Positions 5,004-44,432 of a DNA stretch of 44,432 nucleotides are shown here, in pieces (the stretch's first letter is position 1; each line of letters starts with the position of its first letter). The position numbers were made by a program, and so were the translations under genes. Origin of the DNA: Candidatus Kerfeldbacteria bacterium. Lineage in GTDB: Bacteria > Patescibacteriota > Patescibacteriia > SBBC01. Under the pieces are notes generated by a model, which was not told where the DNA came from, searched no databases, and saw nothing but the letters and a program-made list of their open reading frames with translations. The DNA lies in NCBI GenBank assembly GCA_043799405.1, contig JAZDNT010000004.1, positions 70,206-114,637 on the forward strand. Direction: 5' to 3'.

Positions 5004-6107
5004 TTACTGCCGAATAGGCATGATCAGATACAGATAGTCGACCTCTTTACCGAGGGGCTTCAGAATTCCTGGGCTCGCGCTGTCAGAAACGCCAAGCGAG
5101 ACCGTTTCGGCGCCGCTCATTGCGGCAAGGCCATCAAGCAGGTACCGGTAGTTAAAGACGATGCTCGCTGCGTCTCCGTGTATCTTCGCTGGAACGCTAC
5201 CCTGATGCTCGCCAAGCTCTGCGTTTGCTGCAGACACGGTCACCGCCTTCCTATCAGGATCAAGAGTAATGGAAATGTCGTTTATGCCGGTACGGACGAA
5301 TAGGCTCGCTGTTTTTACGACCTTAATAAAAGAGTCGGTTGCTATGTGGGCGTCTGTTCTTGTCGTCTTCGGTATTATTTGACCATAATCGGGGTACTTT
5401 CCCTCGACCAGCCGCGTCGTTAACTCAGCGCTTCCCGAGACGAAGAGGGCTTGCGTATCGCCGATAAATGCCTCGACCTCGCCTTCTGTGGGAAGGGTTC
5501 TTGCAAGCTCGAATAGCGCCCTCGTTGGAATAATCGTTACGAGCTCTGCGGGCCTGCCTTCGATGGAAAGGTGTCTTTCTGCAAGCCTATAGCTATCGGT
5601 TGCCGCAAGCGTCATTGTGTTCCCTGTTACCGACACGAATGTACCGCTAATTTCCGGTCTCGTTGCGTCCTGCGCTGCGGCGAAAAGAACCTGCTCAAGC
5701 CCTGCTCGTAAGTTTGTTGCCGATATTTTTACGCCTTTTTCTCTCGGTACTGTGGGGATGATCGGAAAATCGTCTGCGGACATGCCGCGAATCGTTGTTT
5801 TTGACGTCTCTCCCACAACCCGAAGCTGCGCACCGTCGGTTTCAAGCTCAATGCGGTCGTTTTCTAAAAGGCCGACAAACTCGGCGAGAAGGCGCGCATT
5901 AACCGTAATTGCGCCGTCCTCGGAAATTTTTCCGCGCACGCGCGTGACGACCCCAACCTCAAGATTGGTCGCGCAAAGGGACAGCGCCCCATTCTCGGTT
6001 TTCAGAAGGACGTTTCCTAAAATTGGGAGCGTAAGATTTTTGCTCGCAATACGACTTACAAGGGAGAGTCCCGCGAGGAGGTTTTCTTTTGTACAAGATA
6101 CTTTCAT
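5004..6107 (-). CDS. dnaN: DNA polymerase III beta sliding clamp
   Basis: 367 aa; ATNLE, ATDSYRLA, EGKYPDY, FNYRYLLD, YLIMP motifs; follows dnaA. Confidence 0.98.
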   Translation of the reverse strand: MKVSCTKENLLAGLSLVSRIASKNLTLPILGNVLLKTENGALSLCATNLEVGVVTRVRGKISEDGAITVNARLLAEFVGLLENDRIELETDGAQLRVVGETSKTTIRGMSADDFPIIPTVPREKGVKISATNLRAGLEQVLFAAAQDATRPEISGTFVSVTGNTMTLAATDSYRLAERHLSIEGRPAELVTIIPTRALFELARTLPTEGEVEAFIGDTQALFVSGSAELTTRLVEGKYPDYGQIIPKTTRTDAHIATDSFIKVVKTASLFVRTGINDISITLDPDRKAVTVSAANAELGEHQGSVPAKIHGDAASIVFNYRYLLDGLAAMSGAETVSLGVSDSASPGILKPLGKEVDYLYLIMPIRQ

Positions 6108-40217: not shown

Positions 40218-41497
40218 CAGTACAACTGGTCATTACCGTCGCCGCAGTATTCACTGCGCTATTGGCGTTCTGGCGGCCGCGACTTGCGCTTGCAGCGGTC
40301 ATCCTTGCGTTGCCGGCGTACCTAATAAAAACCTCAGTTGCAGGAATTCCAGTGACTGTACTTGAAGGCATGCTTATTGGAGCATGTATCGGTTGGTTCG
40401 TTCAGCGTTTGATTGCATACGGTTGTCATCAGCAGTCGTTCAAAGAAGATGTCGGCTGGGTGCGCTCGGCTCTTCCGCGGAACGTGTTGATGGCCGTCGC
40501 CGTCGGGATCGCAGGGTGGCTCATTGCAACGACTGTATCTATCGATATCAGGGCAAGTCTTGGCGCCCTAAAGGCATGGCTCATTGAACCGATGTTGTTC
40601 GGGCTCATGGTACTGATCGAGTCGCGCGACGATAAGACCGTGAATGTCGTACTGCGTTCGCTGATGGCGCTCATGTTCTGGGTTTCGCTCGCCGGGCTTA
40701 TTCAGGAAGCTTGGTTTCGCGGAACAATGCAGGATGCTCGGTTGAGCTCGGTATTTGCCCCGGTCGCGAACTACTATGCGATGCTCGCGGCGCCGCTGTT
40801 CGTTCTGGCGCTTGGATTGATCATTGCGAACCGAGAGCGTACAGTCGCAATCGTGAGCTCGGTCGTTTCGGCGGCAGCGCTTCTGCTGTCTTTCTCGTAC
40901 GGCGGTTTCTTTGCGGTTTGCGCTGGTGGCATCGTCTTGATCTGGACGCAATTATCACAGACCATCCGCCGCCGCGCTTTCTTTATCCTTGGTGGTATGG
41001 TTGTGGTCACGTTCATTGCGCTGTTGCCGTCGCGTCATTTTCAGGAGAAACTGAACTTTACAACGCGTTCATCGAGCCTTGTGCGAACGGAGATATGGCG
41101 GACCGCTGTCGAGATCGGCATCAAACACCCGATTGTTGGCATTGGTCCGAATACGTTCGAAAAGGAATATCGGATCGTTGCACCGACGCTCTACCATCCG
41201 CCGCTGGAATGGCTCGTCGCGAAACCGCATAACCTCTACCTGAACGCGTGGATCGAGACCGGAGCTTTAGGGCTTATTGGTCTCTTATGGGTTTCTGTTG
41301 CTGTGTTCGTGCGGCTGTTCCGCTCCCGCGGTACGCGATCGGCAATCTCGCCAGTCGTCGGCGCTTCATGCGTCGCCATCCTCGTGCACGGCTTTGTCGA
41401 TACGACTCTTTTCAAGAACGATCTTACTGTCCTCGCTGTGGTGCTTGTTGTGATAGGATTGGCGATGAGCTTTCGGGACGTAAAAAGTAACGCATAA
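40214..41497 (+). CDS. O-antigen ligase/Wzy-like membrane protein 2
   Basis: Multi-TM; SFSYGG, R..IW..A....HPIVGIG, PHNLYL....ETG. Confidence 0.85.
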   Translation: MTVQLVITVAAVFTALLAFWRPRLALAAVILALPAYLIKTSVAGIPVTVLEGMLIGACIGWFVQRLIAYGCHQQSFKEDVGWVRSALPRNVLMAVAVGIAGWLIATTVSIDIRASLGALKAWLIEPMLFGLMVLIESRDDKTVNVVLRSLMALMFWVSLAGLIQEAWFRGTMQDARLSSVFAPVANYYAMLAAPLFVLALGLIIANRERTVAIVSSVVSAAALLLSFSYGGFFAVCAGGIVLIWTQLSQTIRRRAFFILGGMVVVTFIALLPSRHFQEKLNFTTRSSSLVRTEIWRTAVEIGIKHPIVGIGPNTFEKEYRIVAPTLYHPPLEWLVAKPHNLYLNAWIETGALGLIGLLWVSVAVFVRLFRSRGTRSAISPVVGASCVAILVHGFVDTTLFKNDLTVLAVVLVVIGLAMSFRDVKSNA

Positions 41498-41502
41498 AAA
41501 CT

Positions 41503-41537
41503 AACCCCACGACATGCCGTAAGGGCTAGTTCTTTTT
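41503..41537. terminator. Terminator-like hairpin between convergent genes
   Basis: AACTAACCC...GGGCTAGTT followed by CTTTTTG. Confidence 0.45.
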
Positions 41538-41553
41538 GTCTTGCTCGCGAGCC

Positions 41554-41637
41554 CTACTTGCGTCGCTTCGCGTGCTTTTTTGACTTCTTTACTTTCTTTG
41601 TTTTCTTGACCTTCTTCACCTTTCTCTTCTTTGCCAT
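41554..41637 (-). CDS. 27-aa Lys-rich peptide MAKKRKVKKVKKTKKVKKSKKHAKRRK
   Basis: Strong SD GGAAGGAGGTGA 6 nt before ATG; clean TAG; below the ORF-track cutoff. Confidence 0.8.
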   Translation of the reverse strand: MAKKRKVKKVKKTKKVKKSKKHAKRRK

Positions 41638-41701
41638 GTACCCTCACCTCCTTCCGGAGCCGGTGCGCTGACGCGCCACCGAGAGTGAAAAAAATTCTAC
41701 G

Positions 41702-41769
41702 TTATCCACAGTTACTAGTTCATCAATAATTGTAACACCATATGTATATAAATTATACGGTGTGGATAA
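41702..41769. promoter_or_regulatory. Two perfect, inverted DnaA boxes flanking an extended -10
   Basis: TTATCCACA 41702-10 and TGTGGATAA 41761-69; TGT-TACAAT on - at 41737-41729. Confidence 0.65.
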
Positions 41770-41829
41770 CAAAAAGAGAAATATTTTTTTGTGGAGGATG
41801 TTTGAAAAAATTCGAACCGATTTTGCGTA

Positions 41830-41851
41830 CGGCTAGCCCGGATCGTTATCT
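41830..41851 (-). mobile_element. Truncated attC-like half site
   Basis: On -: AGATAAC-gatc-CGGGCTAGCCG, the same 11-mer arm as the attC at 44042-44381; no partner arm found. Confidence 0.55.
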
Positions 41852-41874
41852 GGGCACTGTCCGAGAAATATTTC

Positions 41875-41931
41875 GACTAACGTTCACGAGTATACGATCG
41901 TGCGGAGCATATCGTATACTCGTTGTTAGCT
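41875..41931 (-). mobile_element. attC-like recombination site
   Basis: On -: AGCTAAC-a-ACGAGTATACGAT-(12 nt)-ATCGTATACTCGT-gaac-GTTAGTC. Confidence 0.8.
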
Positions 41932-42001
41932 GATGTGTTCCTTTTCTTTTGTCCCGCCAAGGCGGGACGCGGGTAAAAATCTTTCAAATTTCTTTTAGCC
42001 T

Positions 42002-43285
42002 TTATTTCAGTAAATCATCAAGCTCACAAGAGAGTAATGCCGACTTGTTGAGGACTATTTGCTCTTTTGGATTTAATTTATCTGCCGTCATGCGAATGAG
42101 TTTAGTTGTAATCGTATCACCCAGCATGACCCGGCTGGTTTTTTTAAAATATCTTTCTGTTTTCTGATAAAAAAGTGTGGCATACCGTCTCAACTTATCT
42201 TCTGAAGGTGGATGACTTGTCGCCCCATTGCTAGTAAATTCGATCATATCTTTTATTTTCTCACTTTCCTTGATTGGTATATTACCTTCGTTAAAATCAA
42301 TCCAGTAATCGCTCATCGAATACATTACACGGACCAATCCGCCATCTTCAGTTTTAAATGTATAAAGGAAAAAGAAATTATCGGGCATTAAATCGTGATG
42401 CACTCTGACGTGCGCTAATTCCGTCACGGTGCGGATTTTATAATCATCAAGCAATCGTAGATAGCTTTCCCGCCAGTTTCGAAGCCAGTTCTCGACGTAC
42501 GTGCGGTTCGTAAAAAGCGGCATAAGGTCCTGCTTGAGATTTTCGTCGCTTACTTTATTCATCTGCAACGTGAGCTTGTCAAAAATCGCACGCGGATTGT
42601 TGGTATCAATACCCTTGGCAATAAGATAATCGATATCAGGAACCACTTTTTTATTCATGTACCAAAGAAGGTCGTAGATATCGCGTCCTTTTTCCTCGTA
42701 CACCGCTTCGCCCACACCGCGGGTGCCACGCAAAAAGATGGCAGCTATCTTGCTTGCCATCAAAGCAGACATGTTGTAGGTCAAAATAACGAAAGAAAGC
42801 TGATCGCGGTTCATCGGCCGACGCTCAGTAACCGTTTTTGGAGCGACGAAATGATTAAGATCTATTTTTACATGGACCTGATTGGACGCGTGACCAAAGC
42901 CTAATGCTTCGCCAACAAGGAACTTTAAAAGGAGCCCTCTGCCGGTCGTTATTTTGATTGTCAGGAAATTAGGATCAGTGCCATACGTATCTTTAAAGTG
43001 ATCCTCTAGCTCTTTTTTCAGATCTGCTAAAAACGTTCCTGTTACAGCATGTGATACCTCAAAATCTAAATCCACTGACATGCGGTCAAGTCCGTGAATG
43101 ATCCGAAGCGCCGAACCGCCATACATCACCCATTTGCTGTATTCCGGATGATGATAAGTGAAGTTGAGAATGTAATACTGCAAAGCCTCTTTCAGCTTGT
43201 TTCTACGAGTTTCGGCATCAAGATCGCCATAAGCTGAGAGTTCATCAAGCTCTCTTTTAAGTATTGTTAGAATTTGTTCACTCAT
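42002..43285 (-). CDS. AbiEii-family nucleotidyltransferase toxin (type IV TA) with C-terminal extension
   Basis: YGGSALR, RMSVDLDF, SKI, RDIYDL; 8-nt overlap with the upstream antitoxin. Confidence 0.88.
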   Translation of the reverse strand: MSEQILTILKRELDELSAYGDLDAETRRNKLKEALQYYILNFTYHHPEYSKWVMYGGSALRIIHGLDRMSVDLDFEVSHAVTGTFLADLKKELEDHFKDTYGTDPNFLTIKITTGRGLLLKFLVGEALGFGHASNQVHVKIDLNHFVAPKTVTERRPMNRDQLSFVILTYNMSALMASKIAAIFLRGTRGVGEAVYEEKGRDIYDLLWYMNKKVVPDIDYLIAKGIDTNNPRAIFDKLTLQMNKVSDENLKQDLMPLFTNRTYVENWLRNWRESYLRLLDDYKIRTVTELAHVRVHHDLMPDNFFFLYTFKTEDGGLVRVMYSMSDYWIDFNEGNIPIKESEKIKDMIEFTSNGATSHPPSEDKLRRYATLFYQKTERYFKKTSRVMLGDTITTKLIRMTADKLNPKEQIVLNKSALLSCELDDLLK

Positions 43286-43895
43286 GAACGTGTTTTTTAA
43301 TCATGGTATTAAATTTTTCTCGCTCCTGGGTTTCCATTTCATCAATATCTATTCTTAGTTCCTTGACCAGTATATTAATGTTTTCCTGGTTCATGCCACG
43401 AAGCTGCCGAGTCTTGAAATATAGCAGATCATACAGTGCCTTTGAGGGTGAGGCGATAAAAAAGTCAAATCGACCTTTAACCAATGAGAAGCCTGAAAAT
43501 AAATCTTTCTTGATTGACTGATAGGCAAAATTTCCAGCCTTTGTCTGATACTCTCTTGTAACTTTCAACGTTACCGAGGTTACAGAATGGATAGCTTCCG
43601 TTGTGAGATTATAATACTGAAGCGCTGCCCATGAACTGACATATGACGGAGTTCGAATAACGTTGGCGAGATAAAACGAATAGGAAGCTTCACCCTTATT
43701 TTCATTGTAGAAATCTGAGGTTATATATAGCGCCCTCTTTAGCTGGAGAATTTCCTTGGATTTCAAGTAGCGGCTAATGTAGGTATCAACCGTAGTGCGC
43801 ATAAGCCCTAACTGCATTCCAAGCTGGTATACTGTGCTTTTACTGAAATGGGGCAAGCTTTTTAGCTGTTCTAAGAGATTTTTTCGGCTTTTCAT
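43278..43895 (-). CDS. AbiEi-family antitoxin/transcriptional regulator
   Basis: N-terminal wHTH (LKRALY), SYVSSWAALQYYNL, IASPSKALYD. Confidence 0.85.
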   Translation of the reverse strand: MKSRKNLLEQLKSLPHFSKSTVYQLGMQLGLMRTTVDTYISRYLKSKEILQLKRALYITSDFYNENKGEASYSFYLANVIRTPSYVSSWAALQYYNLTTEAIHSVTSVTLKVTREYQTKAGNFAYQSIKKDLFSGFSLVKGRFDFFIASPSKALYDLLYFKTRQLRGMNQENINILVKELRIDIDEMETQEREKFNTMIKKHVHE

Positions 43896-43900
43896 AAATA

Positions 43901-43936
43901 TGACAATAGTGTATCAGATGTGAAATGTAATGTCAA
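43901..43936 (-). promoter_or_regulatory. abiE promoter with an imperfect inverted-repeat operator
   Basis: TTGACA-17-TGA-TACACT; TGACATTA...TATTGTCA brackets the promoter core. Confidence 0.7.
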
Positions 43937-44041
43937 TTTAATGAATATTGAAGTTTTCCCTACTTGAAGGATGTGGGGAAAGAAATTTGAAAGATTTTTA
44001 CCCGCCCCGGGCGATAGCCCGGAAAATAAAAGGGGAATTTC

Positions 44042-44381
44042 AGCTAACGTTTCGGGCTAGCCGAAGTTTGGTCGGGTTACAATTTGCGCGGAGCGCCAAC
44101 CCGACCAAATTTGGGTGAGCGAGCTAATAATCCTATTTTATTCCTCGTAGTTTTTTGATCGTCCATTCAGTATGCCCCCAAAAATATTTCATGGAACCCA
44201 ATAGTGTAATAACGACAAATACTGTTCGCCATGTGTTTGATTCAAAAATAGAAAACCACAACTTCCATAAACCATAGGTGATTAAAATACCCACGAGATA
44301 AAACACTAACGACAGAATGACGATTTTTACTTTCATATATAGTAGATTATTAGCTCGCTCACCGGCTAGCCCGTGTTAGGT
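44042..44381 (-). mobile_element. Giant attC-like site containing a gene in its loop
   Basis: On -: ACCTAAC-a-CGGGCTAGCCG...CGGCTAGCCCG-aaac-GTTAGCT with an inner perfect 19-bp inverted repeat. Confidence 0.75.
44133..44336 (-). CDS. Small 2-TM membrane protein (67 aa)
   Basis: Two hydrophobic helices; fits exactly between the inverted repeats. Confidence 0.7.
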   Translation of the reverse strand: MKVKIVILSLVFYLVGILITYGLWKLWFSIFESNTWRTVFVVITLLGSMKYFWGHTEWTIKKLRGIK

Positions 44382-44393
44382 GATGTCGGCTGG

Positions 44394-44432
44394 CTATTTA
44401 TCAATCCATTTATATTTAAAAATACTCTTCCA
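44394..44432 (-). CDS. 3' end of an upstream cassette gene (...WKSIFKYKWIDK*), 5'-truncated by the window
   Basis: 13 open codons ending TAG 12 nt before the attC inverse core, the spacing expected for a cassette gene. Confidence 0.4.
   Translation of the reverse strand, partial: WKSIFKYKWIDK

Follow-up and report, generated by a model that had tools for sequence, protein, structure and literature searches.

AbiE cassette and its inverted ends

The window analyzed here, a 44,432-nt stretch of contig JAZDNT010000004.1 from Candidatus Kerfeldbacteria, is the distal part of an integron-like array in a genome of the Candidate Phyla Radiation (CPR)/Patescibacteria type. Close to its end, where the G+C content falls from ~54% to ~40% across the last 2.9 kb, lies a cassette that encodes an AbiE toxin–antitoxin pair, i.e., the regulator/antitoxin AbiEi and the nucleotidyltransferase toxin AbiEii, and that is bounded by two long inverted ends, here called arms. 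The features of this cassette are as follows.

41875–41931, minus strand: attC-like site of the AbiE cassette itself, assigned from sequence; perfect 13-nt stem, −16.4 kcal/mol when folded alone.
41925–41995, minus strand: right arm (3′ end of the cassette in array orientation), assigned from sequence, repeat search and homology to metagenomic right arms; composed of the core (41925–41931), GATGT (41932–41936), a pyrimidine tract (41937–41950), a hairpin (41951–41968) and the 27-mer (41969–41995).
42002–43285, minus strand: abiEii, 427-residue nucleotidyltransferase toxin (Pfam PF08843, 2.5e-21; PADLOC AbiEii, 7.7e-29).
43278–43895, minus strand: abiEi, 205-residue antitoxin/regulator (PADLOC AbiEi, 1.8e-38), overlapping abiEii by 8 nt.
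43908–43936, minus strand: cassette promoter, TTGACA-17-TACACT with TG before the −10 hexamer (10/12 matches).
43979–44048, minus strand: left arm (5′ end of the cassette in array orientation), assigned from sequence, repeat search and homology to metagenomic left arms; composed of the 27-mer (43979–44005), a hairpin (44007–44022), a purine tract (44023–44035), AATTTC (44036–44041) and the core AGCTAAC (44042–44048).

A Pfam search gave no match for AbiEi, and no Rfam family matched within 41400–44432 at E ≤ 1. The cassette promoter is kept in the AbiE cassettes of other genomes.

The arms are dominated by a perfect 27-nt inverted repeat, already recorded in the first-pass annotation, in which 41969–41995 (GCGGGTAAAAATCTTTCAAATTTCTTT) is the exact reverse complement of 43979–44005. 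In a repeat search, this 27-mer extends to 56 nt at 75% (41940–41995 and 43979–44034), and a second inverted stretch, offset by 1 nt (41925–41950 and 44023–44048), reaches both cores. By simple arithmetic, a perfect 27-nt inverted repeat within 3 kb has a chance expectation of ~1e-10, and the 27-mer is found at two sites only in the 1.03-Mb genome, both of them AbiE arms. The ~71-nt arms begin at the cores GTTAGCT (41925–41931) and AGCTAAC (44042–44048), the latter being GTTAGCT when read on the minus strand, and abiEi and abiEii lie between them. Both arms follow the same order, with the core GTTAGCT, GA, two mismatches, T, a pyrimidine tract, a GC hairpin and the 27-mer. The mismatch block reads GAAAT in one arm vs GATGT in the other, the pyrimidine tracts are CCTTTTCTTTT and CCTTTTATTTT, and the GC hairpin is perfect in each arm and different in sequence (GTCCCGCC-AA-GGCGGGAC at 41951–41968, CCGGGC-GATA-GCCCGG at 44007–44022). 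The four features noted previously, namely the perfect 27-bp inverted repeat, a different hairpin in each arm, similar pyrimidine/purine tracts and the complementary cores, are thus all present in the sequence.

The cassette's own attC-like site reads, on the minus strand, R″ AGCTAAC, A, L″ ACGAGTATACGAT, loop ATGCTCCGCACG, L′ ATCGTATACTCGT, GAAC and R′ GTTAGTC. Sites of this array take the form R″(RYYYAAC)-A-L″…L′-AAAC-R′(GTTRRRY), and the layout R″-A-L″…L′-AAAC-R′ is shared by a site on the adjoining contig C2 (C2:494683–494748). Both are imperfect palindromes with the R″, L″, L′ and R′ boxes of an attC site, arranged as R″-A-L″(13 nt)-loop-L′-(G/A)AAC-R′, and some cores, e.g., GTTAGCT, deviate from the strict R/Y pattern.

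End complementarity beyond the core also occurs outside the AbiE cassette. In array orientation, which is the minus strand of the window, the array comprises a 141-residue open reading frame (ORF), a frameshifted ORF within an attC-like site, a NUDIX gene, an AbiU2-like HEPN gene, a 67-residue ORF within an attC-like site, the AbiE cassette, a 37-nt empty unit and an orphan half-site. Four of the five cassettes bounded by R′/R″ cores have ends that pair beyond the core, over 26 nt in the cassette of the 141-residue ORF, 27 nt in the NUDIX cassette, 23 nt in the AbiU2-like cassette and 71 nt in all in the AbiE cassette; the 37-nt empty unit has no such extension. Each of the four ORF-bearing cassettes has a complementary pair of cores, and neighboring cassettes have different cores. 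Because non-cognate left and right ends of the same array pair over 3–9 nt only, the extension is specific to each cassette. When all loci collected were scored with anchored, gapped alignment and a threshold of ~21 nt or more, an inverted partner was present downstream of 79 of 551 GTTRNNN-GAMAT sites, and upstream of 4. In a class 1 control comprising four cassettes from an Aeromonas plasmid, the ends pair over 9 nt (qnrVC4), 14 nt (blaVEB-1), 12 nt (aadB) and 8 nt (dfrA14). The earlier statement that ordinary cassettes are complementary over the ~7-bp core only was therefore slightly too strict, with 8–14 nt as the range in these four. A boundary pattern, AACGTTRRRYGAAAT, was also tried over 401 genomes of the phylum; it was weakly enriched relative to a reversed control, and its use was limited to finding a few arrays.

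Distribution and covariation of the arms

AbiEii relatives are abundant in CPR genomes, and a set of 77 AbiE loci from genome assemblies (60–93% protein identity) was compared with the window. The arms are present only in the four of these loci with at least 88% protein identity (L054, L055, L056 and L057); in L078 and L080, another palindrome is found at each of the two cassette ends. A metagenome scan with the right-arm pattern gave at least 120 contigs; among the matches listed, at least 77 right arms and at least 73 left arms are homologous to the AbiE arms, and they form at least 35 complete left–right pairs with cargo of 0.8–9.1 kb. No AbiEii homologue is found in the metagenomic arm-bearing loci among these matches, which makes the arms unrelated to AbiE, and the idea of an AbiE-specific element was rejected on the same counts. 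Many contigs with close AbiEii homologues (L049–L051, L059, L063 and L064) are just 2.0–2.5 kb long, close to the cassette length, so metagenome assemblies seem to break at cassette ends.

Twenty-seven of the units were read in detail. None has an internal cassette boundary, the ORF coverage is 73–99% (84% or more in 22), and the ORFs lie on the strand of the arms in 26. Every cargo checked is unrelated to AbiE and to the other cargos. They include methyltransferases, Eco57I-like, type IIG and type I restriction–modification genes, helicase–nuclease proteins of 1100–1700 residues, Mrr and GIY-YIG proteins, and also a major facilitator superfamily transporter, an ABC transporter, and a short-chain dehydrogenase/reductase with a radical SAM enzyme. 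The AbiE arms are hence a conserved and widespread cassette chassis of CPR-like bacteria, and one that is apparently undescribed; in a limited collection of full-text literature, no account was found of integron-like arrays in CPR or of stems that continue beyond the R boxes. The single unit with all of its small ORFs opposite to the chassis strand, at 6065–7111 of L206 (minus strand), may represent cargo that was inverted between the arms. Furthermore, the neighbor of the AbiE cassette in L055 (L055:4907–6316) has the same two arms around a trypsin-like protein and a 91-residue ORF, and since its cores, GTTATAT and AGCTAAC, are non-complementary, this cassette is a chimera.

Occurrence in several genomes, together with long terminal inverted repeats that are perfect over 27 nt, would also be expected of an element similar to an insertion sequence (IS), a miniature inverted-repeat transposable element (MITE) or a transposon, with AbiE as passenger. 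The flanks, which read AAAC|GTTAGCT…AGCTAAC|A followed by a variable L″, have no target-site duplication, none of the 27 cargos read in detail includes a transposase, and the 27-mer has no copies dispersed in the genome. Each copy examined abuts attC-like sites in fixed polarity. The unit does not have the properties of an IS, a MITE or a transposon with terminal inverted repeats, and we find this explanation extremely improbable. The two outcomes that would have spoken against the first-pass annotation, i.e., repeats that are IS or MITE ends, or repeats unique to the AbiE copy, are not what is seen; extended terminal inverted repeats are present both in this array and in related arrays.

For analysis of covariation, 16 representative units were aligned, and a consensus fold with 61 pairs was obtained, in which 97.1% of the cells are paired. 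Fourteen pairs have changed on both sides, seven of them in the inner stem formed between the arms and seven in the local hairpin of the right arm, where they comprise all of its pairs. The values for paired cells and for double changes were reached in 0/500 shuffles, and slid controls pair at 43–60%. The GGGC/GCCC hairpin of the left arm is invariant over the 16 aligned units. The allele in the window, GCGGGTAAAAATCTTTC, is the most divergent among the aligned units, and is present in both arms.

When right arm, attC and left arm are joined as a single strand of 199 nt, the predicted folding energy is −71.6 kcal/mol (z = −14.3 vs 200 shuffles), compared with −16.4 kcal/mol predicted for the attC alone. 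Both strands are predicted to fold equally well (top, −70.5 kcal/mol; bottom, −71.6 kcal/mol). The outer part of the predicted fold consists of a 27-bp stem, a four-way junction created by the two local hairpins, and a 10-bp stem formed by the tracts. The inner part comprises a 6×6 internal loop that accommodates the conserved GAAAT/GATGT block, followed by the R box, a bulge and the 13-bp L stem. In the units examined, the asymmetry of the spacers is conserved, with A after R″ and AAAC before R′; this is the one feature observed that would fit recombination of a folded bottom strand selected through extrahelical bases. Two units that are 91% identical and have identical arms (L180 and L181) differ at 4/12 positions of L″, and in L181, L′ matches its own L″; the L box therefore seems to change faster than the sequence around it, with compensation between its two sides. 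Whether these L boxes represent a recent swap was also considered, and at just 91% identity between the units the comparison is not decisive.

These results bear on two explanations in which the complementarity of the arms has no structural role. The arms could be regulatory or insulating modules, such as terminators, operators or UP-like elements, located at the two ends of cassettes that are expressed on their own, and happen to be inversely oriented without any role in pairing. Each arm has a GC hairpin of its own, a strong promoter follows the left arm, the right arm is part of a 3′ untranslated region, unpaired arms exist, and one locus (L052) keeps the upstream inner motif without a downstream partner. 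A T run does not follow either hairpin on either strand, however, and no terminator was called. The same arms surround cargos of unrelated function, both with and without promoters of their own, the pairing in the stem between the arms is kept through changes on both sides, and the start of the arms coincides exactly with the recombination cores. A regulatory or insulating role is, on balance, quite improbable.

Alternatively, the arms could serve as portable homology regions that allow RecA to swap or invert the cargo, with no structural significance of their complementarity. Arms that are near identical across many cassettes would suit such a role, as would the chimeric L055 cassette and the opposite strand of the ORFs in L206. 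The orientation of the cargo is nevertheless constant in 26/27 units, and the short extensions of the other cassettes in the array are private to each and therefore useless as shared homology. Neither the inverted arrangement of the arms nor their start at the cores is accounted for, and we regard homology as the sole function of the arms as very improbable.

Recombinase and a probable split recombination hairpin

The location of the AbiE cassette relative to a recombinase gene is defined by the end of the window, which is also the end of its contig (C1). The remaining features of this region are the following.

44335–44432: exact 98-nt overlap with the end of contig C2 (C2:495379–495476) in inverse orientation, as its reverse complement; joins the array to the recombinase gene.
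44042–44382, minus strand: upstream attC-like site, of which R′ supplies the G of G|TTAGCT, with the 67-residue ORF in one branch.
41830–41881, minus strand: distal array end, with the 37-nt unit that lacks an ORF between the cores GTTAGTC and AGATAAC, followed by the orphan half-site.

The assembly break at the 98-nt overlap is located inside the array, and possibly reflects a polymorphic population at this point. At the distal end, the L″-like half-site (CGGGCTAGCCG) has no partner, and marks a decayed end of the array.

Contig C2 encodes a 279-residue tyrosine recombinase (C2:491984–492823) ~2.6 kb from the contig end, on the strand opposite to the array. The joined C2 and C1 array is thus a same-strand cassette array that diverges from the integrase gene. 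The recombinase gene adjoins the 3′ end of a tRNA gene. The best family match is the integron integrase model TIGR02249 (234 bits, with a cut-off of 265), obtained as two stretches that skip model positions 176–223, and the next best is archaeal XerA. The best match in the PDB is the Vibrio integron integrase VchIntIA (PDB code 2a3v), and in the alignment to this structure, 14 residues of the recombinase are placed opposite the 51 residues 178–228 of IntI4. The identity to IntI1 is 36%. As judged by these alignments, the recombinase is IntI-like and lacks ~37 residues, i.e., most of the IntI-specific (I2, or additional) domain; the enzyme does not conform to an IntI integrase with this domain, which comprises the I2 helix around patch III. 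Homologues with 43–59% identity and the same short length are located divergently upstream of arrays in at least eight arm-bearing loci. The divergent geometry is found in 8/8 other recombinase-bearing loci, and in three the gene is within ~120 nt of the first arm.

The left boundary of the units offers information on the point of exchange. Related units are similar from (G)TTAGCT onward, and the base in front of it, G or A, varies with what lies upstream. This pattern maps the exchange to G|TT of R′, a position that derives from comparison of units and not from a recombination product; TTRRRY would then travel with the downstream cargo and pair with the R″ of that same cargo.

Based on the arms and their privacy within the array, their conservation around unrelated cargos, the compensatory changes, the left boundary at G|TT and the association with a recombinase, we consider it probable that the arms represent the two outer halves of a conserved recombination hairpin of unusual size, which integration at G|TT has split around the cargo. 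In an excised circle, the right arm, the attC and the left arm would follow each other as one continuous palindrome of ~200 nt, and the arms would lengthen the recombination hairpin about threefold once the cassette is cut out. Recombination at G|TT inside the stem would split this palindrome, and its distal 3′ part would land at the other end of the cargo. After excision at G|TT, the empty site would be expected to read as the upstream attC …CGGCTAGCCCGAAACG|TTAGTC…. By stabilizing or driving the folding or cruciform extrusion of the site, the long stem and the four-way junction may serve a recombinase that has no I2 helix to read structure. Furthermore, the flanking sites could be brought close to each other for excision when the arms pair in single-stranded array DNA. 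The first-pass annotation, whose interpretation is supported in part, described cassette and attC as equivalent units of stem plus payload. As geometry this is a fair description, because at least 35 other cargos lie between copies of the two arms, and all of those checked are unrelated; the complementarity between the arms is explained more simply by the logic of a circular cassette than by a hairpin that involves the whole cassette in the array. Gene capture in a single-stranded hairpin and a second mode of mobility, as that annotation also suggested, are conjectural.

Several observations weigh against a split hairpin. Neither an excised circle nor an empty site nor a product of recombination was observed, and overlapping ends occurred in 0/16 short contigs. 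The activity of the recombinase and its use of a single-stranded substrate are putative. The centre of the attC is not co-inherited with the AbiE cargo, and the plain classical cassette model predicts otherwise. Parts of one arm have been lost in two of the AbiE loci (the outer right arm in L056 and the inner left arm in L057), and ~40 of ~150 metagenomic arms among the matches listed have no detectable partner in the sequence at hand; for some of these, the cargo is longer than the locus. Finally, the compensatory changes trace to approximately three lineages (WIN, L054 and L055/L204), and could result from gene conversion instead of selection. Gene conversion within the hairpin also requires that the arms pair.

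In a stronger reading of the first-pass annotation, the unit of arm, cargo and arm is itself mobile. In this case, the arms would pair in single-stranded DNA, the whole cassette would form a hairpin, the recombinase would cut at R′ and R″, and cargo and attC would reassort, which would amount to a second mode of mobility and a way to form new cassettes. When the AbiE cassettes of the window and of L054, L055 and L057 are compared (82–88% nucleotide identity), the homology extends from core to core only, and the attC centres, which are short in the window and in L055 and long and branched in L054 and L057, differ in both type and length. The attC centre is accordingly not inherited with the upstream cargo, and the core-to-core homology is compatible with cargo unit and attC as separable modules. 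The second L055 cassette, with the same arms and non-complementary cores, points in the same direction, as do the genes found inside branches of attC-like hairpins (the ORF at 44133–44336, and HicAB and DUF4160 in L056), and a recombinase without the domain by which IntI reads extrahelical bases and settles the choice of strand. Homologous recombination in highly conserved arms would, however, give the same reassortment and the same chimeric cores. The conserved asymmetry of the spacers (A vs AAAC) together with the GAAAT/GATGT mismatch favors a fixed polarity, which argues against a mobile arm–cargo–arm unit. Pairing over 2–9 kb of single-stranded DNA is kinetically unfavored relative to local attC hairpins, and no product of such an event was observed. 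We therefore judge mobility of the whole unit to be unlikely.

The genes inside attC-like sites deserve description in their own right. The 67-residue ORF (44133–44336, minus strand), with two predicted membrane helices, is located at the first branch of the variable top of the upstream site, and is enclosed by a perfect 19-nt inverted repeat (44114–44132 and 44345–44363). The remainder of this site is intact, with the L stem CGGGCTAGCCG/CGGCTAGCCCG and a side hairpin at 44064–44113, and the type of the site matches that of the site before the AbiE cassette in L056. A frameshifted ORF of ~166 residues at C2:493505–494130 is likewise nested in an attC-like site, and enclosed by a perfect 18-nt inverted repeat (GCAGAGCTAGCGAGATGA). 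HicAB and a DUF4160 gene are positioned inside attC-like stems of L056, a Kerfeldbacteria metagenome-assembled genome.

A further proposal is that cargo with its arms on the one hand, and attC centres on the other, are two independently exchangeable hairpin modules, with cleavage at R′ and R″ as a second mode of mobility. Because the recombinase lacks the strand-selecting I2 domain of IntI, its cleavage of folded sites could extend from R′ to R″ as well, and the two cuts would be brought together by pairing of the arms in single-stranded DNA. We consider this proposal unlikely.

Relation to known systems and significance

The joined array has much in common with classical integrons, such as the mobile integrons of class 1 and sedentary chromosomal integrons with attC families of the Vibrio repeat (VCR) type, i.e., a divergent tyrosine recombinase beside a same-strand cassette array, imperfect palindromes with RYYYAAC…GTTRRRY cores, an L stem and a variable top, and a boundary at G|TT. 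As for the VCRs, one family of sites serves many unrelated cargos, and toxin–antitoxin cassettes have promoters of their own. The systems differ in that the recombinase here is without ~37 residues of the IntI-specific domain. In addition, the palindrome runs ~64 nt past the R boxes on both sides, so that the cassette ends pair over 23–71 nt vs 8–14 nt, the cargo is up to 9 kb, and the attC centre is not co-inherited with the cargo. Known attC sites are 57–142 nt in length, with sequence similarity at their boundaries, the two 7-nt R boxes, and the additional domain of IntI reads extrahelical bases and fixes the choice of strand (PMC2727003). The array can be regarded as a variant of the integron-like systems that differs in the recombinase domain and in the extended, split palindrome.

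Archaeal integrons are similar to the present array as cassette arrays of uncultured lineages with small genomes, known from metagenome-assembled genomes, and the same holds for clusters of attC sites lacking an integron integrase (CALINs; PMC4889954). Archaeal IntIs have been reported to contain the additional, IntI-specific domain (Ghaly et al. 2022, PMC9668308), and the recombinase here does not have it. The window alone resembles a CALIN as found by IntegronFinder (PMC4889954), but the joined array does not, because the adjoining contig carries the recombinase gene, and an integrase gene is thus located beside the array. With respect to the cargo, the cassette resembles AbiE type IV toxin–antitoxin/abortive-infection systems in its combination of AbiEi and AbiEii, overlapping genes and own promoter; the difference is that AbiE is merely cargo here, surrounded by arms that are unrelated to it.

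The attP(+) site of CTX-phi is a forked hairpin that is recombined by XerCD at dif, and constitutes a folded single-stranded Xer site. In analogy to this system, the substrate of a Xer-like recombinase without the I2 helix would be a long hairpin, folded so as to imitate a duplex site, with exchange of one strand. Unlike CTX-phi, where a phage genome integrates at dif, the system described here is an array of many cassettes with integron-type cores, and no dif-like target was identified at this array.

In integron biology, attC hairpins are short and bounded by the R boxes, and an extra domain of the integrase reads their fold. The present array indicates that the integron layout is kept in a common system of uncultured bacteria with tiny genomes, with a recombinase that is without most of the IntI-specific domain. 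The recombination palindrome would be about three times longer, and integration would split it around the cargo. This is relevant to the folding, mobility and construction of integron-like cassettes, and raises the questions of whether a long stem substitutes for the I2 domain, whether cargo and attC centre move separately, and how a single chassis has come to hold dozens of cargos that are unrelated to each other, up to 9 kb long and mostly defense genes. Integron finders that demand the IntI-specific domain would, by that criterion, not call these integrons complete. If hairpin modules are indeed exchangeable independently of each other, a ready-made palindromic chassis would have a route to acquire genes, i.e., a route to the creation of cassettes, and arrays of this kind might represent a stage between Xer/dif recombination and true integrons.

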